Assembly (NCBI GenBank): GCA_964255285.1
Contig: CAXUUL010000002.1
Coordinates: 62,001-126,000 of the forward strand
DNA: 64,000 bases
Direction: 5' to 3'
DNA from: Ionaspis alba
Taxonomy: Eukaryota
Positions within the stretch are counted from its first letter, which is position 1. The number at the start of each line of letters is the position of its first letter. Shown here in pieces: positions 12,027-39,012 of this stretch. The notes under the pieces are model-generated. The model was not told the origin of the DNA and did no database searches. It saw only the letters and a list, made by a program, of their open reading frames with translations. The position numbers and the translations under genes are program-made.

Positions 12027-15000
12027 TCAAACAACCCCTCCTCCTCCTCCTCCTGCTCCTGCTCCACCGCCACCACCACCCACCAGATCCCCATTCCTTC
12101 TCTTCGCCTCCTCCAATGCCCTCTTCAACCTCGCCTCCCTCTCCCGATCCACCACGCCCTCCCTCCCCTCAAGACTCTCCCCGCCTGTGGGCCCACCCAC
12201 CAGCGACAACAACATCCAAATCTCATCATGCGTCCGACTCGAATCGCCCCTGATCAGACTCATGCGATGTTCTAGATCCTTCACGAGCTTCTGATCCTCC
12301 TTTCCCTTCGCCTCCCTCAACCGCTTGAACGCCGCCGCATCCGCATTCGCCAGCTTGGCGTTCGCGACCGAGACCTCGTAGTCGGCGGCATTGAGCAACA
12401 TATCGGCGACATGGAACGTCTGCACGATCTGCTCCGACGAGCGGGCCAGCGCCGTGGTAATGGTCTTGGCTTTGAGGATCTCGTCCGTCGAGATGGCGGC
12501 ATCATCGTCGACGCCGCCGAGAGCCACATCCATGGCGATCTTGCGCACCGCTTGCATGACGGATTCCATATAATCCTGGTTCGAGCCGACCCCTCGGAGG
12601 GTGTTCTGATCGAGGACGTCCATGAGGAGGTTGGCCCGCTCGTCGCGCTGGCGGCAGAACTCGAGAATGGCCTTCTTTTCGGCGTCCTCGAAGCGCTTTT
12701 CCAGTTTCTTGACCTTGGCGATGTTGCCCAGCGCGTACCAGGGGGCGACTTCGGTTTTCTTGAGACGCCGGTCGCGCTCGACGACCGCCTCGAAGGCTTT
12801 CTGGTGGCGGATGCCCAGTTTCTGGTAGAGGATGAGCAGGCAGTCCATGGCGGGGGCAATAGGGACGCGGTCGATGGTTTCTTCGAACATTTCTTTGCCG
12901 GCGGAAGCGTTGACGACCATTTGGGTGCAGGTGTCGTAGAGGGGGGTGAGTTGGTCCATCTCGTAGTGGAGGCGGGCCCAGACAACATCGAAGACTTTGG
13001 AGACAAAGGACTGGAATTCGGCGCGGTCTTCTTCGGCTTTTTTGGAAGCTTCGGATCTCTTGAACTCGGCTTCGAGCTCGGAGATGTCGCCGTAGCCGAT
13101 CTCGTTGTCGTTGAAAAGAGCATCGATCCTTTGCTCGGATTCGGTTTGACGAACGTGTCGCTCCTTCTCGTATCGCTCCCGATTCTTCTTTGCCTCGGCA
13201 TCCCAGGCTACGACGGTCTTGTGGATGAAGCCAAAATCATCCGGGACCGCGTCCATTTCTCGTCGAAGCTGTATGACATTTTGAGGTTCCGGACGCAAGA
13301 CACTGGTAGAAGGAACGACCACGAGGAGAGGCTCGAGTATTGTGTACCGATAGTTTCGTTTTGTGGGTACAATATCAGGAGTAGCTATTGGCGAAGGGAA
13401 TTTCATCACTCCGTTTCCAAAGCCCAATACCCTCGAAGCATCATTGGAACCGGCTGCTGGATCATTGCCGATTCCTTCTTCGACTGCTTGTTCGGTAAGC
13501 TTGATGTCCCCTGCATCCATTGAGGTATGCCTTTGAGAGCCTTGTCTGAGCAACTCCGAGAATGGTTGATATATACTTTGGCGATTGCTTGCCTTGTCTC
13601 CTTCGTAGGCGCGTCCTTCGTTGTACCTGAAAGGTACATAGGCTGGTTTCTCCGGCACCTTCGACGTGGTATTGCCGGCGGTTCCAACATCATTTACTAT
13701 GGGTACCGAGTTAGATCGTCCGGGTTCTGCAAGTTTCATATCATGAACTTCGTTCGTCGCCGCTCTGGCTGGTGCTTCCGGCCGTCTAGACTTATTGTCT
13801 GACGCAATTCCGCTACCTGCTACGATATCCAGAGCCTTACGCAAAGAGGTCAACGACGGCGTCATTTTTAGAGGATTTGATGTGTTATTCGTCACTGGTC
13901 TGCCTCCAGGTGTGTATTGCTCGGTGCTGGGCGAATCGACCAAGACATAGGATTCTTCCGACGATCCTTGGGGTACGAAGCCTTGTTCTTGCGAAGGTGT
14001 CGTTGTAGCTATTGGTTTGGATCTGTCCTCTGTCTTTCGCAGAGAAGGTGTATCAATCTTGCCTGGCGATCTGGAAGCCGTTTCAAGCCTGATCGGTGGC
14101 TCTTTTGACTTACCCGTCCTACGTTGGCTTGCGTCCGTAGGCAAAGCTGGCAAGGCCTTCGATCTTATACTAGGACGTAGGGTGAGGATGCTTTGAGAAC
14201 CTTTCAGAGGTTTATGCTTCGTAGACTGCTCTGGTAGTTCTGAGTCATCTTCGATATCGTACAGTACAGCTCTGAGCTTAGTCTCCCTTTGAATAAAATT
14301 CATAAAAATCATATACTTGTCCTCGTCTCTCTCCGCCTGTGACTCTTCGTGTAGCATTTTCACATATCGATTCAGCGATGCTTTCGCCCATGGGTCAAGA
14401 TTTGCATATGGGTCATCCATCTCAATTGATTTTGGGAATATGCTTCGCCTCTCCGGTCGGCCGGCCTCTAAAGAGTCTTGTCTTGTCGGATCCAGATGAG
14501 CCGACTGGGGCGTGGAGGCCGAAAGAGGCCCTTTCATAGGTCTGGCTTCTTCTGGCTGGTGTGGTTCGGCGAGAGGCGCTGATGGCTCTGTTTCGGGAAT
14601 TTGTAAAGATATGATGATATCCTCGGCTCCGTCATCCACACTACCTCGATGTCCGGATCCAGGATTGTGTCCCTCGCTCACATCCACATTAGGGCTTTCT
14701 GCACCAACATTTCCAGTCGGAGCAACTGGCTCCATTGGCTCATCCTGAGTCTCGTAACTTTCGTGTTTTTCATGGAATCGGGGCAATTCATTGTGACGAG
14801 GTTGGGTAATCTCACTCTTACCATGTGCGACATCGGGGTTAATGTCTGCATCCTCGTGATGAACATCCCTCGTCTGCATCTGATGTTCATTATTAACCAC
14901 GCTGCGAACCTCTCTTGGCTTAGAGTCTAAGTGTTGATGATAGATAGCTGAAATAAGCTGCTCCTCGGTGACGGGCTTTGACTGGGTGTCAGCATTCAAA

Positions 15001-16871
15001 TCCTCTTTCGAAGTCGTCTGAGACTTGGTGAGCCCCGTTCGACCTGAGTCACTTCCATCATCCGTGTGTAGTACTGTGGCTGGGCTTTCAGCTGGCGGAG
15101 GATAATGCTCGCTTCTTGGTGAATCGTGAGTGTCACTGATCGTTGTGAAGTCCTCAGGAATTTCAGCTTCAGCATCTCCATCTATTGGCTTGTATGCCTC
15201 TAGCTGTCCCTCTTGCTCCGGCTCATCTTCAGTAGACTGCATTGGTGGTTTGACAAGATCATGTGGAACGCCTATGCCTCCAAGCTGTTTGTGAGGAGTC
15301 TCGAGCGGTGACGTTGTGGCCGGCAGTTCCGCGGTCTTTGGTTTAGAGGAGGTGTAAAGATCTTCATCGTCTATCTCTTCCGCATCGTAATCACCAAAAT
15401 GCTCCCAGTCCGACGGTCCCCCGAATCCAAGTGCGGAAGCACTGGAGAGACTAAAGTTAGCCTCGACCAGATTTGAAGATTTTTGAGGCGGTGCTATATC
15501 CTCATCTGTACCGTCCTGGGTGGTACCAGTCGACGATTGAGGCGAGTGCCAATAGAATGATGCGTTAGAATCTTCGACTGCTCCTTCCGGTGGTCCAACC
15601 TGCTCATCAGGCGTATGGGTCAATCCTTCTTGCCGGTGATTTGGAGAAGAGCCCGATACTCCAAGAGTTTCTGTGGAATTGTTCTCTGAACGTGGTCCAG
15701 TGGGGATGGAAATACTTGGCCTGGATGGTGAAACACGACCCGGCTTTGGATCACTTTGAGCACTTAATGAGCCAGAGTCTCCAGGAAGAGTTAAGATCGG
15801 GTTTGAAGTATTGTGAATATTCGAAGTGGTCTGTGGAGTTCGGTTTGAAGTTTGTACGGATTTAGAGACCGTCTGAGCAGATTGAGAGTCGTAGGGCTGC
15901 TGGTAAGCAAAATCGTGCTGCTGAATTTGAGGCTGAGAATCGAAATTGATAGGGGGTAACTGGAATAGTGGAGGCAATTGTGGTGCAAGACGTGATTTCT
16001 CAGGTCCTTCAGACCGCTGAGTTGTCGGTATCTTTGGTGGCTTCGGGGGCGCTTGCGCCGAAGGACTGGAAACCATGGACTCAGAGTCGTCGCCCTCTTG
16101 CCATGATTGTCGTGGGTCTTCAAATTCTTCGTTGTCATCATCTGGGGGATTTGGGTTGTATGCAACAGGTTTGAGCTTGTAGCCTCCACTGCTTTGGGAC
16201 CCTGAGGCCGACAATGTCTGCGATTGACCGGATTTTACTTGCGTTAAGATGTTCGGTCTAGGCTATAGTAACGTGTTGGTCAGTAGCTCAGGAACTTAGA
16301 CGAACGTATCAGACATCCTCTGGAAATGTAGACTTACCGGTAGAGAAGGCTTCTCCCTTTCATCTTGTGACCTTGAATGCGCATGGTTGTACTTGACTCC
16401 CCATTTTGACGTGTCCGGTAATCGTCCAAGGGTTGTACCATGGCTTTGTGGGGAACCTAGGTTCAGATTTGGAGAGCTATCCTTGGAAGCATGATTTTGA
16501 GGATTGTAGGACATGAGATTGGAGTTGGGAGACAGGCCTGCTGAGGGAGGACCCTGTCGAGTCGGCGCGTACCCTGGCGAGGACGAGTTCTCGTGCGACC
16601 ATGTTGTGATGGAAGGGCTTGGATTCCGGCGCGGTGGCAACGCGGGTAAGGACTCTGTGCTGCTGTCAGGACCAGCATCGCCTAGTGCAGACATAAAATC
16701 AGCGGCCAGACTCTGTTCGGGGCAGAGAGGCATACCTTGAATAGCTGGCGGATGCCCGGATGAAGTCCAAGCAGGAGCTGGCTTCTGGAAGAACTTGCTC
16801 ATCGGCGGCGACTTAGCACCCAGTCGCGTAGCGCCAGCTGCTTGTGAGGACTGAGGATGACCGGTCTGCAT
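12027..16871 (-). CDS. Large uncharacterised protein (about 1590 aa): disordered N-terminal part, helical/coiled-coil C-terminal domain
   Basis: Exons 16871-16338 and 16262-12027 joined by intron 16263-16337 (GTAAGT..ACTGAC..TAG), giving ...KPSLP|PRPNIL... in frame with the 1395-aa ORF. Ordered-looking motifs include FGGPSDWEHF and DPWAKASLNRYVKML. Confidence 0.85.
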
Positions 16872-21185: not shown

Positions 21186-22309
21186 ACTGGATTATCAACA
21201 ATCCTAGAGAGCTTGGACGTTCTCAGCGAGTGGTGGTATCGCGAGCTATTTCTGGACTGAAATGCTACCGTTGATCTAGCCGAGAAAAGCGTATACGTAT
21301 TCACGAAATGGTATTGCTGATCTAGGTGCACGATAAACCGGGCTTAATCCGATCGTTGGGTAGATCCTAGCGCCTCGAGCCGGCCATGAAATGCGTCTAG
21401 CTTGTAAATCCCAGGCTTAAAAGTACAAGATTGTAAGACTTCAAGAGAAGGAAAGAAGAACGAATCGCGAGGACTGTGGAATGAGAGCGGAGACTCGTGA
21501 GGAAGAGAGCCAGTATCTAGAGGATCTGTTATACAATGAGGGGCGGAAAGCGTTTGCTTTACCGGGAAAGAGATGGGTGGTCGAATGAAGATGGGTTCGA
21601 ATTGGAGGTCGAACACTCTGATGACCTGGAATGGGTGGTCTGCAGCAAAACAGCGGTAGATACCATAATATCTTCGGCCTACGAAGAACAGAGAAGCAGA
21701 TTTCGGAAGGAAAGGAGAGAGTGAAGGTCGATTGGGACCCAGGGCTAAAGAGAGTGTGGAAAACCCACGCACCACAGTCCAGACAACTTGGAAGCATAAG
21801 ATCCGACAATCTTGGTGCCTCAGAGGGTGCAGAGGACGAGTTGCCCCGGACGTCATGCGTCACAGCTTGCCTCTCCTGAAACGATGAAACGTCAAGCAAT
21901 AGCTCCCCCTGTGTGTTCCTGACCAATAAGACAACTCCTCCCCTCCCCTGGACGACTCGCTTCTTAGCGTTGCCGATGGCATCTCAAACCTGCCAGGGCC
22001 ACTATTCCGTGCCGATTCATGCATCCAGAGAGGGATTCCGATAATGCTACAACGTTACCGTGATCGCTTTGGAGGATGGAAAGTGGATGTATGCACCGCC
22101 TGCTCGCCAATGGTCGAAAGAGTAACAAATTACATGGGCAGCAGCATTCGCGATAATAGATTGGTTCTACAACTGATGAATGCGCACCACCTTACACGCA
22201 TCCCAGCCAGGCCATCATCCGGTCTCCAGGTCGTTATGTTGGTCAGCCTATACAGCCCTCTTCTTCTCCGTTGACGAGGTCGTCAACCTGAATGGAATCG
22301 AGTAAGAAG

Positions 22310-24410
<2,101 letters not shown>

Positions 24411-25015
24411 TCACCAATGTTATAGAACGAGTCAATCACAACAAACCCCGCATCTAATCACAGAATGGAGTTCGTTGGACTTGAAAGCGACCGGCTAACG
24501 ATTCAAGATACTCTGCATGACTTATAAGAGTGAGAAAGCGCAGATGGAAGTGTGACGACCTTGGACTGTGGGCAATGAGGATTAGATATTTGTAGCTTTG
24601 CGAGGAAGCTGTTCGCATGGACGCTGGCCAGTGATGCGACGACTACCCAGGTTCCCCGCCACTGTCGTGATTAGTACGATTTCTACATCGACGCTCGAGA
24701 ATTGGCCATCCGGGTAGTTCGGGAAGGAAACGAATTCCATGTGCAACATTAACGATACTGGAAGCCATCAATCGCACGAACATTGCACATGGTTTCTGGA
24801 ATCCTATCCGCAAGGTTACCTGAGGACTGAAAACTTTGTCTCCAATACTTTAGTCTATGTAGATTGCTCGTAACAGCCATTAGAGACAAATTCTCATGCT
24901 TAATGCTCATCTTGATTCATATTCACCTCAGACATGATACTCGTGCATCCATAACAGAGCAACCGACAGTCTATGAAGCGAACAGCTCCCAATTGACCAT
25001 TCCTTCGGCTTCGGA

Positions 25016-26677
25016 TCAATCGATACTTGGTTCAAGGGTGTTGCCACTGCAAAACCATATTAGCACCGCGAAACAAGGTCGAGAAGCATAACTGTACTTA
25101 CGCTACGATGTTTGCCCATCCAATCAACCGCCAATGCTTGTCAATTCTCCTGCTCAGAGCAATCTTCTCCCCAATCTCCGTACAAGCCGGACTAGTCAAG
25201 CTCAGCTTGGCAGCATCGGCCTTTACCCCCATAACCTTTGCCCCCGTAGCCGTCGATCCAATGTTGACCATCAGCACCTCATTCTTCGCCAGTTTCGCGA
25301 CTTTGGCCTGTTTTCCGTCCGCAGTCTTGACCCCCAGCAACCGGCGAAGCAAGAAATAATTGACTTCGAGTTCGGTGTAGATGGCAGGTAGTCTGCCCTT
25401 GAGACCAAGCACGAAGCCAACGAGACGATCTGCACGACACAGGGTCGGGTCGACACGAGTACCAACCCCGATCAATCCTCCGGGCACAGCGAATTTCAGA
25501 TCGTTGTGCTCCGCAAACAGCGACACGACTCTGCTAAAGATGGGCCGACATTTGATTTGGCCCTTGTCGTCCTTGGTGACCAGACCTGGTCGAATCTCGA
25601 TCTCATCGCCGAGCTTCAGGACTCCGGTGAGGATGCTTCCACCGGCTACACCACCCTTTAGGTCCTCGATCTCGGCACCCGGTTTGTTGACATCGAAGGA
25701 TCGAATGACGATCATGTGGGGTGCAGCAGTGAAGTCTCGGATGGGTACGGGTATCCTGATGACAAGATATTCGTTGATGGCATCGATATTGTATTTGAGC
25801 TGGGCGGAAATGGGGATGATCGGGGAACCGTCTGCTACTGTGCCGCGAATGAATTTCAGAATGGATTGATAGTGTTGCTCGGCGCCCTCTTCGCGCATCA
25901 GGTCGACTTTATTTTGTAGGATAATGATGTGATTGAGCTTCATGATTTCAATGGCGGCGAGATGCTCCGACGTCTGTGGTTGTGGGCATGTCTCGTTGCC
26001 AGCTATCAGGAGAAGAGCTGCGTCCATGACTGCGGCACCAGACAGCATGGTGCTCATGAGGATATCGTGACCAGGACAGTCAACAAATCTAGACGTCTGA
26101 TCAGCTTCGACTTTGTGGGAGCCATGTATCTCAGACGAGGAACTCACGACACATGTCTCTCCAAACGATATCTCCCATTACATCCTTCCCTCTCGCACGG
26201 CGGATATACCTCCTTCTCACTCTTATAACTTCTGTAACATCCGGGACGTGGACACTCCTCGTTATCACACTTGTAGATCTTCGCATTCGCATATCCCAAT
26301 TTGATGGTAATATTTCTCTCCAACTCATTCTTGAATCTGACAGTTTGTACCCCCGATATTGCCTTTACCACCGTCGATTTTCCGTGCGCCACATGCCCTA
26401 TAGTACCGATGTTGATAGTTGCCTGCCTCGCGATGATCACGGGGGAGAGAGGGTTAAGTCCGGAGACATCGAGGGTCTTTGGATCTGGCTGCTCCGGAAG
26501 CTCGGGTCGTGCGATCTGAGGTGTTGGTTCCAGTCGTGAAGTCTGTTTCATCGCCGACCTTGGCTTCTGCGCTAGATCTTCCACTTCTACCTCGTCGTCG
26601 TGACCATTCGCTGCTTCGAAAGGTGGAGACCCAGGTAAGGAATCCTCGTCGGATGGCATATCACCGTTCGTTGCCAT
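25016..26677 (-). CDS. GCD11: Translation initiation factor eIF2 gamma subunit
   Basis: Introns 26089-26147 and 25047-25101. GTPase motifs [18 protein letters not shown] and ISAQ; C-terminus [26 protein letters not shown]. Confidence 0.97.
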
Positions 26678-27290
26678 ACTTGGGAAGCTTTATCGGGTGT
26701 GAGGCTATTTGAATCAAAATTCCACCCTCCGCCTGGGCTATAGTAGCTGTCCTGCTGAAACTTGGATTTCAGAATTTCGGACTAGTTCTAAGGGAAATTT
26801 GACGACGTCTGGCAGCCCAGCAAGTTGGAGGCCAATCTGCACTTTTGTCACAGCAGTCTGAGGGGGGTCAAATGACGATCGCGAGGGTAGGAAGGACTTC
26901 GGCTCAGAAATACCTTTCGAAGGAATGCAAATTTCAGTGTCTCCTGAAACTCCGTGACGTGCAAAAGAAGATCAGGGGTACTAAAATCGTGGCCGAAGCA
27001 TGATTACCACAATAATTGTTGCGCCTTCCCATGATTGCGTAGCCGAGTCAATAATGTCTACGGCGGGGATGCTCCTGAGGCGGGAGTACTAAAATCGCTG
27101 CCGAAGCAGGAATTAGTGGAATGCCCCCGGAGCCAGCCGTCTCGCCAACTATTGTCCCATACTGTTCGGGACAGTAGTCCACGGCTCAAACAAACTGACA
27201 ACCATCATTGCGCAGGCAGGGGCTGGTACACTTCCAGAATTTTGGATTGACAGATCTATGTATTCCAAACCACACGACCGTTCATCTGAG

Positions 27291-29125
27291 CTAAGCTTCG
27301 GCAATTAAGTGCACTTTCTCGCCGCTGGCACTACCGCGCACCTTCGTGCCTTTTCCAAGCAGGGGAGTTTTAGGTATCGTGATCTCGACACCAGACAACT
27401 CGTAATTAATACTGATGCTATTGCCGAGGATGTCAGCTTTGGGTGCCTTCGAACATTTGATCGTGCAGCTGGACTCTTTGCTGCACTTGATACGCTTCTC
27501 AAAGAGTTCAGATCCTTCAGACTGTAACATTTGGGTTTAGCACGAATCTGATCCGCCGGGGATATTGGACCACCTACTAACGTGACCAAGTCGTCAAGTA
27601 TAGTCGAGCCGGTCTTCAGCGCCAACGTACAACCCGTGAAATCGTACCATTTCCGAATCTCATGCACCAGACCCATGGCGACCTCCATGCGACTTCGAAA
27701 ACATCAGCCCAGGCCTACTACTCCACACTGATTCTCAGTGGAAGGGAGGAGGATGTGAATGCTCTTACGGATCTTTGGATTGGAGAACAGCAGCTGCTCG
27801 GACGAAAGCGTTGGCGCTGGACGTTTTCCATTGCTGGACAGCTCTCAAAAAGAGGGCTGACGACCCTAATCCACCTGCCACTGTAATATGACTCTGTCAC
27901 AGTATCAGTCAGGCCAATGCAGGCTGAAGGATAGTTCCCACAACGTGTGCCAATTCGGCACGGCCTTTCGTTTCAAGAGTCTGCCGCAGCTTATTCTCAA
28001 TGTCCTTCACGAAAAGATCAATACATTCGCTGATCTCTTGACTAATGAACAGTCTGCCCGTCAGAAGCTTGTGCATCAAAAGCTACTTACTCACGGTGCT
28101 ACTTACGGAGAGAGCGTTATACAACTCCGCCGAATGCCAGCGGCAACATCATCCGGAAACATGCCAAGATCTCGAAAGATGACTGTACATTCAGATGGCG
28201 ATTCTTCTAGTAATTGAACTGTCGTATCTTCCTCCCGAAGATGCTGCCTCACGCGCGGCCGCAGCAGCGACCACGGCAAGGCTGATCTTGTGGTATCAGA
28301 GCCACGGAGTAGCTTGCGCTCGAAGGACTGCTCTAGTCGCATCAAGTAATTGGTACCGCCAAGAGTGGTAATGCTGCCTATGGATTGCGTCGAGGTGAAA
28401 CTAGTAACTCCGTTGAAGACACGAGCAATACAGAGAGCGATGTCCACGGTACTTCCCCCGGCATCTATCACAATGACCTGCTGGCGATCGGTGCAGAAAA
28501 GACCTGCCTCAGTCTTGTTAAAGTATGACGCTGCCGCTGCTGCTTCGCTCTCCATCAGCACTCGATGGCCCGGCCCGTCGCCACCAAAGCCAGCATCTTT
28601 GATACACGCACTGTAGTCGCTGATAGCGTCTCTGTCTTCCAGTACCCACCGGTCTGGCACGGCAAAGGCAAAGACGATTTCAATGTCAGCCCAGTCCGTC
28701 CTAGCGGATTGGGGTCTAGCGCTGCTTTTGATCCAGGCATGGAGGCACGTCAGATAATCAGTGATCCACCTTTTCACATCTTGATGGCGAACTTCCTGCT
28801 CTCGAGCTTGGTACAGCTTGAAGTAGCCATTGTGTAGGAAGATCTTGAACCAATCACGTGTGACAAGGACTGGATCCTCGAGTTTGGCGGCTGTTACTGC
28901 GGCACTCGCGGGGCGATCGGCAGCCCCATCGCCCCAGCCAACTAGCTCCTCTTGGCCATCCTGCTTGCGGTACACAACAGCAGTTGGAAACTTAAGTGGC
29001 TTACTTTCTTGGCCCTGATAATAAAATGCTACGGCTAGACAAGTCAGCCTTGTCTCTCATGATCTGCCATTGCACATACCTGTGGCTGTCATTCCAAAAT
29101 CGATGCCGACGATCAGATCCGGCAT
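27291..29125 (-). CDS. Atypical Hsp70-like / actin-fold ATPase (HSPA12-like fungal type)
   Basis: Predicted introns 29035-29079, 28054-28106, 27894-27941 (weak GTGGGA donor), 27693-27768 and 27522-27577 (or 27581). Motifs IVGIDFGMTAT (phosphate 1), KFPT, FAVPDRW, ESEAAA, VIDAGGSTVDI (phosphate 2), VAGGLGSS (adenosine), VAMGLV. The 3' end is ambiguous (27291 or 27305). Confidence 0.8.
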
Positions 29126-29465
29126 GCGGGGCTGCAGATGAATTTCCTTCATTTGTGGGAAGGTAAAGCATGAATCGGTTTAGGAGGCTAGGGCAGTAGC
29201 TCCGTGATATGATATCTTCTCCCTTCACCGCTCCAGCTCTTGTCTCTCTAGGGTCACGGGGGAGGAAAATCCTGGGACGGCCCTGTACACTCCCGTGTCT
29301 TGTGTCAAACGACGTCCGTTTGCGTGCTCCCACATTCCCCAGACGTGAAATGCGCATTCTTTGTCTTTAATTGGTCTATAAATCCCCCTGCACTACATGT
29401 TATCCGCTCTACTTGATTTCCTGCATCGGATACGTGCTACGTCGGCTTTTCTTCGTGTCATTATC

Positions 29466-30519
29466 ATGGTGGAGCAATGCCTCATGGCTGGTGCCGTCGT
29501 TGGGGGTATTTGCGGATTCTTCCTACTCGCATTGGCACTCTTCGTTTACTATCTTTACTCTCGACCTCCCCGCCTCTCACGCCCAATACCGAGGAGTCGT
29601 CTTGAGGACCTCTCACAACCAGCACCGACGAGTTATTATGAGTACCTCGCTGCAATCGTGCCGAGACGATATCCCGATCCCCCACCACTTCGAGAACCCA
29701 GATCACCAATCACATTGGATAGGCCATTCTATGAACTGGGTGGGAGTACGGGCTGGCTTCTCGAACAAGCCGAGAACTTGAGTAAGGCGGTGCAAATCTC
29801 AGATTCTTGGGTCCTAGATGAGCCATTATCATCCGTGGATGCTGCTCGGATCACCAAGACCATAAGGGAATTTGGACCTGTACCGGGACAGCTACCCACG
29901 GAGAGGTTGCTGGAGCTTCTTCAACAAGACCGAAATCGACTCAACGCTATGGATCATTTTATCTCAACAACCCTGATCAGCTCTATTATATTGGAGTCAC
30001 AGCACCTGCAGCTTCTGGCAGCCCCTGTGGCGTACTTCCTTCGCTACGTGAACCTTGAATATCCTATGTTTCGTGAGTCTAGACATGGACGCCGGGACGT
30101 ATAGATCTAATTTCTATGTAGGCCAAGATCTCGTGGTCGGCACCGCCAAGCTCCGGAAACTCTTACGCGAAGTCCTTCCTCTACCCAATACCGAGGAGGA
30201 ACGAAACAAGATGAAAGCTTACCTTCTGGACGTTCTTCGATCGTTCTTGAAGGAGGAACACATGTCCGTAGTGCATGAGAGACTTGACCGCTGGTTGCTT
30301 CGCTTCTCGGATTTTGGCAACTGCTTGCTGTTAGAACCAACGAGCTGGTCATGGGTCTATAGCACAGAGAACCCCATCCCCGAAGGCTGCATCTTTGGTT
30401 TCCCTGGCTTCCGGCAGATAACTGACAGTGATGGGAAACCTGAGGCGAATCCGAAAAGTTTCGACGTGACGACTTGGCATCTCAATCCCGCCGCGGAACC
30501 TGCGCACGAAACTGAATGA
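29466..30519 (+). CDS. Uncharacterised single-pass membrane protein, head-to-head with the Hsp70-like gene
   Basis: Intron 30073-30121 (GTGAGT..CTAAT..TAG) joins two ORFs in frame (...YPMF|RQDLVVG...). N-terminal TM AVVGGICGFFLLALALFVYYLY followed by SRPPR; C-terminal LLLEPTSWSW...IFGFPGFRQITDSDG. Confidence 0.75.
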
Positions 30520-30701
30520 CAAGGGCGAGTTGGTCATTGGTAGGCAGAAGTTATGCTAGAAAGCGCGTTCTAAAAACGGAACAGAGTCTCCTGCTCTCCT
30601 TCCATACACTGTTGCTCTATAGTCCCTTATTATACATTAATACCAAAAGCTGGGTGTCACAGCTTCCCGCCCGCCTCTCTACTTTCCCTTGTCTCTCCAA
30701 T

Positions 30702-31245
30702 CTAGCTTTCATTTGTCGCGGCTAGAATCTCCGCATGCTGCCGATCGAATTCGTCGTATGTGAGCGGCAACTTAATCGATGCAGACCTTACAAGCTGCCT
30801 CTGACTAACAATATTCGGTCAGTATGCACAGGATGCGATCAGAGATTGTTGTTACCTTCGCGTGGTCTGCAGTAGCTGCGCAAAAGCAATAAAAGAAATC
30901 AATTGCTTCTCCAAGTCCTTGCTGAGTTTTGCCGGGTCGGTGAATTTCCATTTGATTCTGGCAAAGAAAGCCCCAAACGCCTTTTGATTGTACAGCAGCT
31001 TGAGCTTGCAGAAACCGCTTTGTTTCGTTGATGCTTTCCTGGCACTGTCGCCACCAATTTTGAATATCTACTTCCTCGTCGCTAGTCAAGCCTTGATTGG
31101 TCATCCACGATAGGAGCATCGCGACTGATTGCAAGGTGTTTTGGAGGCTGTTGAACTCTCGAGGGGCTTCGTTGGCATCCTGCAGAAGGCGGATGATTAC
31201 CGTGGCAACGTTGAGCATTTCTATTGGGGATATGGGGAGCGCCAT
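30702..31245 (-). pseudogene. Small SesA/HeLo-like (fungal STAND N-terminal-type) helical protein with an apparent +1 frameshift
   Basis: MALPISPIEMLNVATVIIRLLQDANEAPREFNSLQNTLQSVAMLL...CQESINETKRFL. Removing one T near 30963-30965 continues the protein as GFLARIKWKFTDPAKLSKDLEKQLISF, matching the AP.EF..L...C...W..L pattern of this domain group. Intron 30805-30855 (GTAACA..ACTGAC..TAG). The 3' end is approximate. Confidence 0.55.
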
Positions 31246-32344
31246 CGCTGTTCTGCAGGGTTTCGTGGAGGGATATGGGTTAATTAACGTGGATGATATC
31301 AAATTGAAGGGGTGCGAATGTAGTCGAGTCAAACTCGGGGAGCTGATTGTTAACCTAGATGTCCATCGAGGTGCTATATACATATCTAATGACACAATGC
31401 CCATGGCCCCTGAGCTTGAATTGTTCTTGCGATACCCAGTCCGGTGCTCGCAAGTATCATTGTGTCTAAGGAGATCTTAATTCTCAAAGAGAGCATGCAA
31501 CATTGACTCAACCTCATACAGTATTGTTGTATGGTGGAAGCGCCTAGGCTATGTCTTCACCAAATTGAACAGCGAGACTATTTGCAAGTCTCGAGTCCGC
31601 TACGTACGTTCCGTGATCGAAGGGACAAGCCAAAGCTTACTGCTGTCACGAGTGTACAAGGGACATAGAACGGTTTTCGCTTAACCCGAATCAAAACACC
31701 CTTTCATTCACTGGAAGTAGCCCTCGCGTCCGTCGACCAATACACCAACTTAGATTTGCAATCCTGGGATGAGACATCCAGTAATGGTGTCGAGCTGAAT
31801 TACTGGATGGCCAATGTCTGTTGCCGAGACAAAATTGATACCTTCCTACAGACTCAATCGCTGGCCTGGAACGCACGCTTGTGCGCGACAAAGAAAATCA
31901 ACGTGGATATCAGATGCGCTTGGAGAACAAGCGTTGTTGAGAATGTCTCGGGGCATAGATGAGACGATAGTCTTGCGGTGTTTTGACTTTGTCGGGTCTT
32001 CCGTTCTCCTCCAGGCACTCCACTTCCGTATCTTTATGCGGGCCCGTGGGCCCCTAAAAGCTATCTCTGTCTCAAATAGACATGAAACCCCGGGATTTGG
32101 AAGACTCGTCAGCTGTTAGTGGAGTGATTTCATTACTGCGACACGCCGAGCTTGAAAGCCTCGTTATGGCAGAAATAGATAACGTCCTCCGTCTTGAGTC
32201 GGAAAGTGTCCCCAACACTCATGTAGACAAGGAAACCGCTGCTGGAGGAGTAAGAGAAGATAGTGTGATGCGATGCCACCAGGGCTGTACCATCGCCGTC
32301 TTTCATGCCGCAATCCGCACATATTGAGGTGCTAGTCCGCTTGA

Positions 32345-34000
32345 CTAACAAACGCTCTGTGAGACTTTGCTGCTATTATCACTATTACTATCAGTTTCGG
32401 CAAAGCCCACGAACTCCTCGTCAGATCCACCTTCCCCATCTACTTCACCTGAGCTGACCGGCTGCTGTAGAACGAATGCTTTGAGGCATGTGATCCGGTG
32501 ACCAGTCTCGTAGGTGCCTAGAAGTTCCCCTACTCGGTGTATTGGAGACCCATTCTTGCTGTCCACCGCACCATTCTGGCCATTGAGAAACCTCTTGGCT
32601 TCGCTGGCACCCTCGGTCTGTGTGGCCCCATTTTGGTGCTCGATCGCATCGGGTAGTTCCGACTCAAGCAATCTCCACAGACGAGTTGAGCCATCGCTAC
32701 AGCCAGTGATAAGAATCATAGTGGATAGACCCACCTCGCCACGAACTTTCAGAATCTCGAAGTCTTTGATGCGGCTTGTCACTCCTACAGTCATGCCGCC
32801 CAGCTGAGCAATAGGGACGCAAGTGGGAACAAATGTCTTGGATTCTTGTTTGCCTCCTCTTTGAGCTCCCAAAGCCTCGGTCGAGTAGAATAACATTCGT
32901 CCATCTTCAGTCGACATGACTAGGACGTTCGACTTTGTGTTTTCAGTCGTAATGTGCGAGATGTATCGCATTTGGTGAAGCTTCGTAGCAGGCGAAGGCA
33001 AGATACGGCACTTCGGCATTGAATCCTATTACATGTTAGTGGTGGTCTTGTCGTGGTTACTTGGACGTATAAGCCCTACCATCCCGAAAACGACGGCACC
33101 TTGTTCAAAAGCCACGGCAAACTCATCTCCCGCTGCATTCCATGCAACCTTTCGTCCTTCCCCGCTAGCCCATTTGCCCTCCCCAATGCCTTGTAATGCT
33201 TCCCTCTCGAAGCTCAGGACACCGGCTTTCTTGCCTGTGACGAGGTTCCACAACCGCATGCACTTCTCTCCTTTCCCAACACTGATCATGAGCTTCATAC
33301 TCGGATGTACCGCAAAGTCGTTGATACCGGCAGGAGTGCCACCAAGAGGGGCAGTATCCCCGCTAGGTCGTCCACCAGCCTTAGGAATGGGTGCCTTGAT
33401 AGTAGAGAGAACGGTCCAATCGCGAGTCCGTGATACAGCAATAGTGTTGTCTTCCGCTGCAGACAGAAGTTTTGATCGAGTAGGAAAATACAAGACGTTA
33501 ATACTAGAAGAGTGATGTAGGAGGGAGCCGAGCTCTCGATTTTCTGGATTCTCATTCACCCTTGTGCCATTCGATAACGGTAGCGAGAGTTTTTTGCCAA
33601 CACAAACAGAAGGAGTAGAAGCAGAGATTTGATAGAGATTGATTCGCTCATCTGTACCACCGCTCGCTAAAATCATCTTCTGCTCTTGGGAAGCCTTCTC
33701 CGATGTAGAAGGGGGAGATAGAGCCAGACATCGGATTGCTGAACTATGGGCATTGAATAGAAAGGTATCAGAAAACGAAACAGCTTCCAGTGCTTCATCT
33801 TGACCTTCTTGCGCATTCAAGATTCTTGCAGAAATACCATGCAAAACTCTATCGTACGATCCCACGATGATCAGAATGCTGGTTGATTGGGTTGATACTG
33901 AGATCGCTGTGGCAGAGTCAGGCACCCTGGCAGTCTCCTTTGACTTGTCCTTAGCAGGTCGTTGACTTCCAGGCTCTGCAACTCTCTTTCTTTTGCCCAT
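32345..34000 (-). CDS. MAK11: 60S biogenesis WD40 protein Mak11/PAK1IP1
   Basis: Intron 33026-33079 (GTAGGG..ACTAAC..TAG). Motifs IIVGSYDRVLHG, FLFNAHSSAIRCLA, LASGGTDERI, NDFAVHPSMKLMISVG, LWNLVTGKK, RIKDF, RITCL. Confidence 0.92.
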
Positions 34001-34300
34001 AGTAGTAGCAATAATTAGGTGTAATAGACAACTTGAGACAATAGATTACATATTCAATTCCAGAACAAAAATTGGTTCGCGTGTCTGCGTAGCGTAAGCG
34101 AGCTTTCGTATAACGCCTGCGAAGCGGACATCGCAATCGCAGGTTCTGAATGACTAGCAACACGGATCCCATCAAGAAATTACGACTCCCATCGCTATTC
34201 ATCAATTTTGACGATCATCACGACTCATTCTATGACCTAAAGAAAGCTAGTACCATCGCTTTCAGCGATTTTTTCGGATGTCGCAATCCAGATCAATTCA

Positions 34301-37300
34301 ATGCTCCGCGATAGGATCTTGAAGACAAAACGCGACGAACTTGCGTGAGTCCTTACAGTGTTTCGAGTCTTGTCAAATTACTCAATCGAGTTATGAGATT
34401 ATCAGGTAGCTAATAGAGTGGCAGGACATGTATAACCAGTCGCAAACGCAAACTTCAAGAGCTGTACAGTGCGACCGTGGTTTTTGCGACCGAGCCGCGC
34501 TTCCTGCAAGATCGCAAAAATGGAGCCAAATGGCTTCAGCACTACAGTGAACCTGATTTCTTGGAAGCAAACAATATTGTGCAGTGAGCACGATCTAAAT
34601 ATCCCCGACGAGTCGTATTTGGTATGCTAAAGTGCTGTCCAGAGGCAGATTTTTCGATACTGCGACCCTGCAACAGCTACCAGGACCATACACCGTCGAT
34701 TATACCGACGAATCTGCATCCTCCGCGAAAGTACTGCCTTCCTACAATCAAGACGCCGCGATTGGGACAAACTCTGGTGATGTTTTGTGGGAGAAACACC
34801 TCCAGTGCTATACCACGAATCCCGGAAGCGTTTCTGCACCTTCTCAACACTCAAGGAAAGAGGATCGCCACCGCTCTGCGTTACAGCAGAAAATATCAAC
34901 AGGAATTCAAGTCGGACGCTCGTTGATCCAGACAGGGACAGACACCGACAATGCGGACCTCAATGAGGACGAGGGTGCGAAGATCCTTGCCTCTCCATCC
35001 CTCAATGCCCAGCTTCCTGAAGAGGTAACTTCGACTCCTAAACTCACACGCATAGATGACTACCGAGCTACCGAGCCGACAGGGAGTGCTAGACGAGCCG
35101 TTGATAATCCTGCTGGTATATCGCACGATCATAATATCAATGGAGGCCGGGGAAGCCCGAACGACACCTCTCTATCCTCTGAGGCAGGAGGTGTCGACCA
35201 AGCACACCAGCAAGACCAGGGCAACAGCGAATCAGTGGTCTCGAGCGGAGCTGGAATTTCGAAGCCCCAGGGTGCCGAACGGCAGGACCATGATAATAGC
35301 ATCGGTCTCGACAATGGGACAAGAATCGACACTAAGTCACCGAAACCACAATCACAACCCGATGTGTTTTCTGAGCCTCAGCTAGACCTTGCGAACTCTG
35401 TTTCCCTCAAATGTACTCCATCAACGCCGGATGAACAATTAAGGCTCGAGGAAGCTCAATTCATGAAGCCTTCACAGCGATTCTCCTATGCACTACGCAA
35501 AGAAAGCCAAATTCCGCAGGAAGCGTCTTCTCCGACTAATGTTGTGGACATGACAGGTGACTACGAGCGGAACAGTCAATTGTGCCGTGATGCGGATGAC
35601 TCGAGTCTTATTAGTAGACGAAATCTACCACCAAGAGACCAGAGAATTCCTGGTATGACAAGAGATATATCCAAAGATCTTATGCTTAGCCAAAGGCCTC
35701 CGATGCGTATCGATACTGGAGTCACCACGCAAAGTCCGGCTAACCGAGAGGAGAGTGCTCGTATACAAAATCAGGTGGACATACGAACGCCTTCAAGTGC
35801 ATCGACTCCTCTCAAACCCACACCCACTGCAACTTACCAATCTCCGCCAGAGAGGATGACCACGAGAGTGTCCTCTGGAGCTCTACGCCATAAATCCGTC
35901 TCTGAAATTCTTGGTGAAACTCCCAAAATCGTGACACATCAAGGGGACAGGAGCCCTTCGGATAGAGCGACTTCTGAAATCCAGAAGGAGGAAACTGGTT
36001 TACCTACTCCTAGATATGGACAAGTGGTTACTTCTCCTGACACCCTCAATTTCAGGTCTCGCCTGAGCGAGTTGAAGGAAAGAGAGAAGGAACGCAGCAA
36101 GCTCTCGACCGTGGTTTTTGCACGTCAGCAGCCTTTTGATGGTAGCCGTAGCACGGATTCCACATCAAGAAGTTTACCGGCGCATATAGGACCTTCGGAC
36201 GAAAGCAAGGACTACCTTGTTCCATTATTCACTGCCCAAGCATCTGCACAGCAACCATCCCTGAGCGCGCTAATGGGCTCGGCTCACAAGACTTTGACTA
36301 CACCAAACCAATATCTGGAGTTCCATGAGCAACAGGACTGTCGGATCCTGAAAAGGATATACCACCTGCAAAACTCGAATCGCTGGTCCCTCCGGCAGCT
36401 AGAGCGGGCAGCGGAGTCAGAGCGACCGATCTCACATTGGGATGTGTTACTTTCTCACATGAAATGGATGAGAACAGACTTTCGTGAAGAGAGAAAGTGG
36501 AAGATCACGGTTGCAAAGAATCTTGCAGATTGGTGTTCCGAATGGGTATCCAGCCCCCAAGCTAGACGTGCATTGTTACAGGTGAAGGTCACAGAGAACA
36601 GAGAGAAAGCACATGCTTCTCAAAGTCATGCGACACCAGTTTCAATACAGAATAACGGTGAGACCTTACGCTCGGAAAACACCCCTGAGCTGGTTCCTTC
36701 CACAGAGGATGACTTGAGTGACACCATGGACGAAGAATCGAACTTTGTGGCCATAAACAGGAGCATAGCTCCAGCAGCGATTTTCTCCCTCGCGTCTGAG
36801 GACGTCTACTTTGGTCTTGAGAAGACGTCGGCATCCGACAAACTCCTGAGTGAACTGCCAATGTACGAGCCCTGTGGGGATATGCAGGAGTTGTCCTCCC
36901 AAATCAACGATGCTTCGATCGATAGTGCTTGGAAAGCATCCATCGTCCCAATTTCAAAGTTTGTAATAGGAAAAATGGTCATTAAAGAGCAAGGCTCCCT
37001 GCGGAAGAGAAGCCGATATGAATACGAAGACGACTTCATTGCGGCGCATGATCTATCAGGTCGGCTAGCGCCGAATTCCATTCAACCACAACAGAATATG
37101 GGACCCGAGAATGAAGATGTCGCGTTATTCAACCCAGAAAATCAACACATCATCGATCGCCTGCACGCCGCACATGCCTTCAGGCCGCCGTCTGAATTCA
37201 ATATGCCATCCCAGACCTTTTTTGAGTCTCGTTCATCATCACAATGGACGTTTATGGAAGATGATGAGCTACGAAAGCTGGTGAGGGAATATGCATATAA

Positions 37301-39012
37301 CTGGTCCTTGATATCTAATCGTTTGTCCTCCCCATCGCTCTTCACGTCTGGCGCAGAAAGGAGAACCCCCTGGGAATGCTTTGAGAGGTGGGTCGGATTT
37401 GAGGGACTCCCTGGTGACATGAGTCGCACACAATATTTCCGCACCTGGAATGCCAGACGTGACGCTGCAAGGCATCATCTGAATCAGCAATTTGTCGCCC
37501 ATCAACAAGCTCACCATACCTCACAATCCCAGTTGAGACGCAAGAACACGGAGCCCATGAGAGTTGAAAGAAGAAGAAACAGCAAGCATCTGGCTTTGGT
37601 GCATGCTATGCAGAAGGTAGCCAAAAAGAAGGAAACAACGATTCAAAAGCAACAGCATGGTGAGTAGACTTGCATTTGGTCACCGTCGGGAATCGTCAGA
37701 CCTCGTGCTTGTAACAACCAATATTGCCTCTATAGGTCTCCTTTGCTAATTACCCTATACTGTAGTCGCATCCTTAGCTGCAATGCGAAAGGCTGCCGAA
37801 GCCTCGCAGCCACGGCAGCGCATGCAGACCCCTCAAGAATTCAGCCGTTTCAAGTATGAACGCGAGCTTAAGATTCAAGAGAAGCAAGAACAGTACCGGG
37901 CGCAGATGCTCCTTCAACAAAGGGTATTGTTCACTAGTGACCGGACAGACAACAGCACGACTGACACAGAGCAGAACGCCATTGCTCAGCAGAAAGCAAT
38001 GCAGCAGGCAGGTCAGCAACACGCTGGAGCGAGCCTCACGCAGCCTGCCCGAAGCGCACTCTCAGGGTCGAGCAATAACACTAGCCCTCATCTTGCTTCA
38101 TCTTTGCCTAGCACTTCTCTACCAAACAGACAGAACAGCCAGGGTCGACCTTTGCCTCCATCTCAAACCATGGTGAATGGAGGTGCCTCTGGTGCGGGCC
38201 ATCCATCAAGTGGTCAATCAGGAACAAGGGTAGGGGGTGCTCCTCAAGCACCAATGCAATCGTTCCCGCAAGGACAGCCACGACTGCCACTCCAGATGGT
38301 TGGTGCTGACAATTTGCGCATTTTCCAGGAGGCGAATCGCCTCCAGGCAGAGCAGCAGCAATACTTACAACAGCAGCGTCAGCAACGCTACCCACAAGCA
38401 AATAGTCTAAATGGTATATCGTCGTCTCCTCACACCGGGAGTCTCCACCTTCAGCATCAGAACAATGCTGGCGTGCTCTCAAATTTGCCGAACGCGAATG
38501 GTGCTCCGATCCCTTCCACCAACGGCGTCTCAGGTCCCTCAAGACAGTCTCCTTCGCCGGGGACTTCTCACGGTCACCAGTTATCTAATGGTTCTGTTCC
38601 AGTAATAAATCAATTCTCTGATTCGCTGAGACTTCGTCATCCACAAGCAAGTCCGGAGCAAATCAAGCAATTGACATCTGAGGCTTTGAATCGTTATCGG
38701 CAGCATTCGCAGGCTACTGGTTATATCGGCACAGCGAATATGGCTGGATCAAATGGCGGCCTTGGTGTTCTAGGTGTAAATCAGCCACAAACTGGAGCAA
38801 ACTACAATAGCGGAATGCTCAACCCTCAAATTTATGCTCAATACATGCATTCTCAGCAACCAACGCAGCAAAACCGCAATATACCTAACGGAGTTAATGG
38901 TGCTAGGCCACTAAGTCGAGACGCCACGCCCCAGATGAGAAATGGCAACGGCCAAGCTGGAACGAGCCAGAGTCCTCGTCCAGCACAGGCGCAGATAGCC
39001 GGTGCGGAATGA
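34301..39012 (+). CDS. EAF1: NuA4 complex scaffold Eaf1/Vid21 (HSA and SANT/Myb domains, Q-rich tail)
   Basis: Start MLRDRILKTKRDEL at 34301; introns 34345-34424, 34584-34642, 37660-37765 and probably 37924-37974. Motifs SRKRKLQELY, RWSLRQ, HWDVLLSHMKWMRTDFREERKWK, WTFMEDDELRKLVREYAYNWSLI, RTPWECFERW. Confidence 0.93.

Follow-up and report, generated by a model that had tools for sequence, protein, structure and literature searches.

A recurring three-gene locus of Ionaspis alba with a divergent Hsp70-fold ATPase, a family-less partner and a probably disrupted, candidate SesA/HeLo-like gene

A stretch of 64,000 nucleotides from Ionaspis alba (assembly GCA_964255285.1, contig CAXUUL010000002.1, positions 62,001 to 126,000 of the forward strand), here called the window, carries at positions 27291..31245 three genes, A, B and C, which lie between a gene for eIF2-gamma and a gene for a WD40-repeat protein. 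All three had been proposed in a preliminary description of this DNA, and the open reading frames (ORFs), the raw sequence and the three-frame translations return them with limits exactly as given there. Gene A (27291..29152, minus strand) has six exons and encodes a divergent, putative Hsp70/actin-fold ATPase of 527 amino acids; gene B (29466..30519, plus strand) has two exons and encodes a family-less protein of 334 amino acids; gene C (30702..31245, minus strand) is a small helical gene, possibly SesA/HeLo-like, and is frameshifted. Genes A and B are arranged head-to-head, and the region between them (29153..29465) presumably holds a shared promoter; the divergent layout is as described before, while the spacing is 313 bp between the start codons and not about 340 bp. 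Gene C converges on gene B with 182 bp between the two stop codons, which agrees with the earlier value of about 180 bp. Because the same arrangement recurs in other fungal loci, the grouping of the three genes is, as judged from the sequences compared, beyond chance. The explanation tentatively preferred here is that filamentous ascomycetes have a rare, fast-evolving unit of three genes, possibly a cell-death switch, of which this locus is one copy.

Gene A begins directly with the phosphate-1 strand of an ATPase. Its exons (29152-29080, 29034-28107, 28053-27942, 27893-27769, 27692-27578 and 27521-27291, stop codon included) are separated by five introns of 45, 53, 48, 76 and 56 nucleotides, all of the GT..AG type, and the start of exon 5 is backed by similarity to the A-like gene of L002, one of five related loci (L001-L005) presented below. 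The product starts MKEIHLQPRMPDLIVGIDFG and has ESEAAAAASYF, VIVIDAGGSTVD and ITVAGGLGSS. The motifs of the acetate and sugar kinase/Hsc70/actin (ASKHA) group can be recognized as GIDFG in exon 1 (phosphate-1), the E in ESEAAAAA (catalytic Glu), VIDAGGSTVD (phosphate-2) and VAGGLGSS (adenosine). In a Pfam scan made exon by exon, a procedure which lowers the scores, exon 2 matched HSP70 (PF00012) with 18.6 bits (E 6e-4), under the gathering cut-off of 20.6 bits, and the relative P0002 also stayed below this cut-off with 17.0 bits. Exon 2 matches one solved Hsp70 (E 0.0071). A profile of six members of the A family (A6) gave 58 matches at E<=1 in the PDB, at least 53 of which are nucleotide-binding domains of Hsp70, DnaK, BiP or Hsc70; it aligns kDAG...EptAAA...D.GGGT.D in register with Hsp70 residues about 155-221, a stretch that includes the catalytic Glu and the phosphate-2 loop, with E-values that are weak (0.03-1) yet consistent. 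No Hsp70 substrate-binding domain or lid was detected in A: the HSP70 profile matches over positions 164-234 of 599 only, and exons 3-6 give no match. Judged by these motifs and profiles, gene A is an Hsp70-fold ATPase that lacks a substrate-binding domain and keeps the catalytic-site motifs. The earlier label of an atypical Hsp70-like ATPase is thus borne out by the motifs and by the profile matches to Hsp70s of the PDB, and falls short at the Pfam threshold.

The word search with exon 2 covered 5.8 billion proteins, and three of its 2141 candidates reached E<=1e-5, namely the ORF of the gene itself and two relatives, 50-51% identical, that end at the same exon-2 boundary. Past the nucleotide-binding domain, the C-terminal extension of A has ~95 amino acids, against ~190 in the genes of the related loci (L-type genes). 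The protein may be akin to the lidless Hsp70s of the HSPA12 type (HSPA12A/B of vertebrates, with expanded families in bivalves and fungi), which it would resemble in the absence of a canonical substrate-binding domain and lid, in long insertions and in size (530-650 amino acids). It differs in the phosphate-1 loop, which is DFGM[TA] in A and usually DxGTT. The accessible part of PMC3879978 deals only with the seven Hsp70 subfamilies of the yeast type. Elsewhere in the window, a piece of the A-like gene of L002 has a weak tblastn match (E 0.006) at 55773-55937, within the region 55370-56230 (minus strand), where the ORF ends ...HSIGTGKIDEAFIQLC, like the G..kID.aF block of the A family; the surrounding ORFs have no Pfam match, and this sequence may be a degenerate remnant of a second Hsp70-like gene.

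Gene B is composed of exons 29466-30072 and 30122-30519, separated by an intron of 49 nucleotides. It has one strongly hydrophobic segment (residues 9-27, Kyte-Doolittle mean 2.47) with basic residues after it, which indicates an N-terminal transmembrane anchor (residues about 7-29) and a remainder predicted to be cytosolic; the single-pass membrane partner of the preliminary description is recovered in this segment. Downstream of the anchor follow a Pro/Arg-rich linker, a helical region and the conserved C-terminal motif FP..(5)..[ST]D.DG[KR]....PK. The Pfam scan assigned no family to B, and the word search with exon 1 in the same 5.8 billion proteins returned only the ORF of the window itself (one of 1304 candidates). 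By BLASTP, exon 2 matches the C-terminus of the B-like proteins of L003 (E 4e-5) and L005 (E 8e-4), and the C-terminal alignment (A8) contains 17 invariant columns. A hidden Markov model (HMM) of the L-type C-terminus places exon 2 of the window at the top of 1596 window ORFs, with an E-value of just 0.81. An AlphaFold model of exon 2 of the L003 protein, made with four sequences, was unusable (predicted local distance difference test, pLDDT, 40.1). Ahead of the helical part, the motif LP[SGR]Y[DE]P is conserved in the B-like proteins of L002, L003 and L005 (near residues 55 and 142); B of the window has VPRRYPD at residue 65 instead. Motifs of the LPxY/PPxY type are ligands of WW-domain ubiquitin ligases.

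For gene C, a HMMER search of 1.84 billion representatives gave seven matches at E<=0.001, six of them collinear small proteins of 130-173 amino acids (E 2.4e-21 to 4.3e-4); a word-based protein search gave four candidates, none at E<=0.001. Three of the six relatives are named, and they come from Acarospora and Xylographa, which are lichen-forming Lecanoromycetes, as are the named relatives of the trio genes in general. The seventh match, P0010 (295 amino acids), was rejected as spurious, the likeness consisting of four short stretches in a proline-rich repeat protein. The annotated, full-length protein P0012 (156 amino acids) agrees with a two-exon model of C and has the conserved tail SISLPLSYEEFDR where the window has SIKLPLTYDEFDR; the tails of the family read LP[LE][ST]Y.EFDR.

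Three lines bear on the family of gene C. The N-terminal 85 amino acids match Pfam SesA (PF17107) over profile positions 5-81 of 122 with 21.7 bits (E 2.4e-4), below the gathering cut-off of 26.3 bits, and two of the six relatives give weaker matches to SesA or PigL_N (PF17111), those to SesA being 17.5 bits in P0006 and 18.7 bits in P0007. The neighbours of C in a language-model map of proteins (Atlas) are small ascomycete proteins, and in some of their clusters 13-29% of the members have MLKL_N, SesA or PigL_N. The AlphaFold model of P0012 (pLDDT 74.7) is all-helical, with five to six helices, and MLKL or plant N-terminal helical domains of NOD-like receptors (NLRs) make up six of its 15 top rows in VIA-align, a search independent of Foldseek: MLKL with Z 10.2 (root mean square deviation 2.5, 100 residues aligned), a second MLKL with Z 8.9, and the coiled-coil (CC) domains of MLA13 (9.0) and Rx (8.5) and the RPW8-like CC (CC-R) domain of NRG1.1 (8.1), with the N-terminal domain of Sw-5b also listed; these Z of 8-10 are lower than the ~13 that helical bundles can reach through common arrangement alone. 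In addition, the most hydrophobic 19-residue window starts at residues 1-5 in C of the window and in the C-like proteins of L003 and L005 (Kyte-Doolittle means 1.36-1.94). These three lines, each weak and all in agreement, would group C with the SesA/HeLo-like proteins. The same assignment in the preliminary description is in line with the sub-threshold SesA match, the Atlas neighbours and the MLKL and CC matches of the model; it stays below the curated threshold, and Foldseek gave no match at E<=0.001.

The top VIA-align match of the P0012 model is IncA, a SNARE-like protein (Z 11.8, 134 residues), and this result opens a rather unlikely alternative in which the trio is a conserved unit with a non-lethal role in trafficking, membrane-protein quality control or organelle tethering. 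Here C would be a syntaxin/IncA-like helical adaptor rather than a pore former, A would remodel C as Hsc70 remodels coats, and B would be the membrane receptor. A stray, weak match of P0011 to Syntaxin_2 (E 0.0013) points the same way, as does the conserved LP.Y[DE]P motif of the L-type B proteins if it is read as a ligand of WW-domain ligases; the Atlas neighbours carry SesA, PigL_N or MLKL_N and not syntaxin.

The reading frame of gene C is broken in the window. From the ATG at 31245, exon 1 runs over 31245-30856, followed by an intron of 51 nucleotides (30855-30805) and exon 2 (30804-30702), and the intact product would have about 163 amino acids with the tail LPLTYDEFDR at its C-terminus. 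The first 96 codons form one frame, and the continuation ...FARIKWKFTDPAKLSKDLEKQLISFIAFAQLLQTTR lies in another. In the alignment of the family (A2), C follows its relatives to ...VQSKGVWGF and then, with no gap, in the next frame (FARIKWKF...); in the same way, tblastn places residues 1-93 of P0012 on 31245-30967 and residues 92-154 on 30971-30732 in a different frame. With regard to all six relatives the frame moves by one base, an extra one, near 30966 (site 30960..30972, minus strand), and the out-of-frame reading continues to a stop at 30805-30807. An intron was considered as the cause of the change and rejected: every GT..AG pair nearby encloses less than 40 nucleotides, and the relatives align without gaps. 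The independent assembly made from run X1, of ~130-fold depth and possibly from the same source reads, shows no indel across 22000-38000. Since C is frameshifted relative to its relatives, no intron fits and the assembly of X1 contains no indel, gene C is most likely a pseudogene that would yield at best a truncated product with a foreign tail. The shift appears to be recent, as one event accounts for it and the sequence is well conserved otherwise, with 49-51% identity to the nearest relative on either side. The preliminary description overlooked this shift.

One might go further and regard the whole locus as a decaying relic in this genome, with A and B non-functional too. The frameshift in C would fit such a decay, as would the C-terminal extension of A, about half the L-type length (roughly 95 vs 190 amino acids), and the loss of part of the unit at the related locus L004. 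This is nevertheless very improbable: A keeps six in-frame exons, canonical GT..AG introns and the ATPase motifs, B keeps an open two-exon frame, and the shift in C is a single, recent event.

The case for a unit comes from other fungi. When metagenome contigs were scanned with the alignment of A, five fungal loci were confirmed among 164 pattern matches, with A-like genes 26-44% identical to A of the window (tblastn E 4e-16 to 3e-15, DVKRWITD[YF]L being among the shared blocks). A- and B-like genes are head-to-head in all five, with 0.8-1.5 kb between the starts. The order in L001, L002, L003 and L005 is the mirror image of the window, with a small helical gene on the plus strand, the B-like gene on the minus strand and the A-like gene on the plus strand; the small helical ORF of these four loci has 167-176 amino acids, and the B-like gene converges on it. 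L001 was left out of the alignments, its proteins being 98-100% identical to those of L002; L004, which lacks the parts concerned, was excluded from those of B and C. L003 is syntenic with L002 throughout. When 20 kb each of L003 and L005 are compared, all ORF matches at E<=1e-4 fall within the three-gene block (identities of 36-39% for C, 41-53% for B and 35-50% for A), and the flanks, 6-8 kb on either side, have no match. Neither the eIF2-gamma gene nor the WD40 gene of the window was found in L001-L005. Linkage of the homologues elsewhere, on which the preliminary description had made its module depend, is therefore seen: the trio recurs as a unit, with unrelated flanks. In a fourth genome, relatives of A and C are probably linked as well: P0002 (A) and P0006 (C) are each found on one ENA contig that is 38210 nucleotides long, most likely the same one. 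Window C and the small protein of L003 are alike in size, all-helical nature, N-terminal hydrophobic segment, position and orientation, and the L003 protein has Atlas neighbours at 0.91-0.94 in clusters with PigL_N and SesA on 13-24% of the members.

A quite unlikely explanation of this recurrence is that A, B and C are unrelated, lineage-specific neighbours, kept together as leftover microsynteny, with the likeness of the B and C genes partly due to chance or to abundant families. It draws on the homology of C between locus types, which is not significant by sequence, on the number of SesA/HeLo-like small genes in ascomycetes, visible also in the many Atlas clusters, and on the count of diverged lineages, which is three. 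Nor do the predictions provide a physical link: for the L003 C-like protein with L003 B, given as two exon chains, the complex prediction reached no verdict (score 0.00), and the B model was unusable. Mere neighbourhood would leave unexplained that order and orientation are constant in the window, L001-L003 and L005 while the other ORFs of the 20-kb loci are unshared, that the window and each of the five loci have A and B head-to-head, and that the three genes have co-diverged to similar degrees. The C-terminal motif of B is moreover significant pairwise, and relatives of A and C are probably together on one 38-kb contig.

For L003 against L002, the ratio of nonsynonymous to synonymous substitution rates (dN/dS) amounts to 0.49 in the small gene, to 0.33 and 0.24 in the two exons of B and to 0.31 and 0.25 in two exons of A. 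With values of 0.24-0.49, A, B and C of the L002/L003 lineage are real genes under purifying selection that evolve fairly fast. L004 is 94-98% identical to L005 at the DNA level from the middle of B onward, and its upstream sequence, to the contig end, is unrelated, so that L004 lacks the small gene as well as the 3' part of B (L004:1-1376 compared with L005:6500-8112). The difference could reflect a presence/absence polymorphism or the insertion of a repeat, by which the unit was truncated. Together with the frameshifted copy of the window, the truncated copy of L004 suggests presence/absence variation of the trio. The B-like gene of L005 (L005:8050-8640, minus strand) has an in-frame TAG at the end of its first block, a second TAG after ...LQLKDVE and a change of frame; an alternative GTTAGG donor and a possible intron of 64 nucleotides could rescue it, and either one or two extra short introns are needed or the gene is disrupted. 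The spread of the unit is patchy, as the relatives found in the searches above were two for exon 2 of A, none for exon 1 of B and six for C. For a non-lethal role of the unit in trafficking or quality control, dN/dS below 1 is compatible with any function. The very patchy distribution, the rapid divergence, the frameshift of C in the window and the absence of the C-like gene and of the B 3' part from L004 speak against it, as patchiness, divergence and losses fit dispensable conflict-type genes better than core cell biology.

Around the trio, the window is occupied by housekeeping genes, a neighbourhood that would suit such a non-lethal role. The eIF2-gamma gene (25098..26689, minus strand) is recognized by the Pfam families eIF2_C (1.4e-32), GTP_EFTU (1.7e-16) and GTP_EFTU_D2 (1.2e-11) on 25098-26177, and the WD40-repeat gene on the other side (32345..34045, minus strand), putatively MAK11-like, by WD40 (6.2e-10) on 33029-34045. 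The other genes encode Utp13, a G-patch protein, a ubiquitin hydrolase, a prenyltransferase, a multicopper oxidase, a sulfatase, an HSA-Myb protein and a C2H2 factor. The HSA-Myb gene lies directly beyond the WD40 gene as a single open frame of 1022 amino acids (34599-37664, plus strand) with HSA and Myb-like domains, and its product is probably a subunit of a chromatin-remodelling complex. At 12030-16262 (minus strand) there is an uninterrupted open frame of 1411 amino acids that has no Pfam match at E<=1e-5. Two further sequencing runs, X2 and X3, gave contigs for nothing but conserved stretches of eIF2-gamma and other genes, none of which bridges the locus. Across 22000-38000, run X2, labelled as another organism of the same study, yields short contigs identical to the window at a low depth (about 1-4) together with diverged copies of conserved genes of its own at a depth of 18-32, which suggests a mixed sample.

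In the known fungal cell-death clusters, the effector, of the HeLo type or a gasdermin, is paired with either an NLR or a protease; one of the clustered effector systems is sesA/sesB/het-eN of Nectria haematococca. The accessible text of two sources places fungal HeLo, HeLo-like and SesA domains together with the MLKL bundle; where tested, these domains are membrane-targeting death effectors, which are controlled either by a clustered NLR via amyloid templating or by direct fusion (PMC12881547, PMC9815663). The clustered systems described there are het-S/nwd2 of Podospora anserina, HELLP/PNT1 and the three-gene PP cluster of Chaetomium globosum (PMC12881547, PMC9815663), and in HET-S the hydrophobic N-terminal helix is the membrane-targeting element (PMC12881547, accessible part). 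The present trio shares with these clusters a small protein predicted to be a helical bundle, the hydrophobic N-terminal helix, the tight grouping of two or three genes with a nucleoside triphosphatase (NTPase), the patchy distribution and the rapid turnover. It differs in that the NTPase is of the Hsp70/actin fold and not a NACHT or NB-ARC member of the signal transduction ATPases with numerous domains (STAND), in that there is no repeat-domain sensor, in that the third gene encodes a family-less protein and not a SesB-like lipase, and in that no amyloid-type motif is common to the partners. NACHT, NB-ARC and HET were not matched by Pfam in the ORFs of genes A, B and C, nor at E<=1e-5 in any of 78 further ORFs of at least 130 amino acids from the whole window and L002-L005; the absence of a STAND NTPase nearby agrees with the preliminary description. 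The tails of the C proteins (window, L002, L003 and L005) have no motif in common with A or B beyond that of shuffled sequences, 63-951 of 1000 of which reach the score, and because of this the amyloid-relay logic of the known clusters is missing here. A candidate LP..Y-type motif shared by the C tails and B was likewise rejected, the likeness being not above that of shuffles.

Compared with the four-helix bundle of MLKL and the CC and CC-R domains of plant NLRs (PDB 4btf, 6ux8, 9fyc, 4m70 and 7l7v), the C-family model is alike with Z 8.1-10.2 over 100-118 residues and differs in sequence (5-14% identity), with scores that lie within the range of unrelated bundles; moreover, C stands alone, with neither kinase nor NLR body. 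Another parallel comes from bacteria, in whose GTPase-centred conflict systems HSP70 and tubulin have been predicted as stand-ins for STAND NTPases, as far as the accessible text describes them (Kaur, Burroughs, Iyer and Aravind, 2020, PMC7159879). The likeness lies in an Hsp70-family ATPase within a gene cluster, which in the bacterial systems is proposed to be an NTP-driven assembly component. The bacterial systems are prokaryotic and have GTPase, tubulin, GrpE and DnaJ-fusion partners, all absent here, and the accessible part of that source describes no HeLo-like effector with HSP70. As for the combination itself, which the preliminary description considered undescribed, the literature searched gave no account of a fungal cluster in which an Hsp70-fold gene lies with a HeLo-like or SesA-like one. 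Helical-bundle effectors that are clustered with an NTPase are known already; what is new is the class of the NTPase, the third partner and the missing amyloid relay.

The tentatively preferred reading, a rare three-gene unit with a possible cell-death function, would be composed of a lidless Hsp70-fold ATPase (A), a family-less partner apparently membrane-anchored in two of the three lineages seen (B) and a SesA/HeLo-like bundle of ~160 amino acids (C), as far as sequences and models go. By analogy with the clustered HeLo and HeLo-like systems of fungi, C could be a membrane-attacking effector, which the ATP cycle of A might hold or release, with B as anchor or adaptor. The Hsp70-fold ATPase would then fill the switch role of the STAND NTPase in known clusters, and a role of the trio in signalling, non-self recognition or cell death, as inferred in the preliminary description, may be considered on the same analogy. 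In this genome the effector is probably dead, and the unit would be disarmed or decaying. The stronger proposal of an NLR-independent fungal cell-death or defence module, in which a lidless Hsp70-fold ATPase, docked by a dedicated, often membrane-anchored adaptor, would be the ATP-driven switch that arms an MLKL/HeLo-like pore former, is considered unlikely.

Several observations weigh against the cell-death unit. All family assignments (HSP70 for A, SesA for C) are under curated thresholds, and P0005, P0008, P0009 and P0011 have no SesA match at E<=1 in the Pfam scan; three of the six relatives match neither SesA nor PigL_N at that limit. Foldseek with the P0012 model finds nothing at E<=0.001 in the PDB, the best VIA-align match of this model is the SNARE-like IncA, and its MLKL and CC scores could be due to helical packing. 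Between locus types, C and the L-type small genes are joined by a marginal hhalign result (E 0.01, probability 4%), and gene C is missed when the 1596 window ORFs are searched with an HMM of the L-type small genes. The N-terminal halves of B do not align (BLASTP E 2.6 and 9.8), an HMM of this half likewise misses B of the window, and a transmembrane helix, present in B of the window, L004 and L005, is absent from B of L002 and L003. To these are added the failure of the C tails to share a motif with A or B and the small number of independent instances, namely the window, the lineage of L001, L002 and L003, and that of L005. A small block of synteny, finally, can persist without having a function.

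If a HeLo/SesA-like protein is indeed clustered with an Hsp70-fold ATPase and a novel partner, the control logics of the known fungal cell-death clusters would be joined by a third, and the lidless Hsp70s, a large and enigmatic family, would gain a role that can be tested. If the NLR-independent module were true, it would be a eukaryotic counterpart of the predicted bacterial Hsp70 conflict systems and would place HSPA12-like proteins in a functional context for the first time. With three genes in about 4 kb, the system is small enough for transfer into yeast or Podospora, and population data could make use of the suggested presence/absence variation of the trio. If the role is non-lethal, the trio would still be an unstudied conserved unit. 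Lichen-forming fungi live in permanent contact with other organisms and would therefore be a natural place for such systems.

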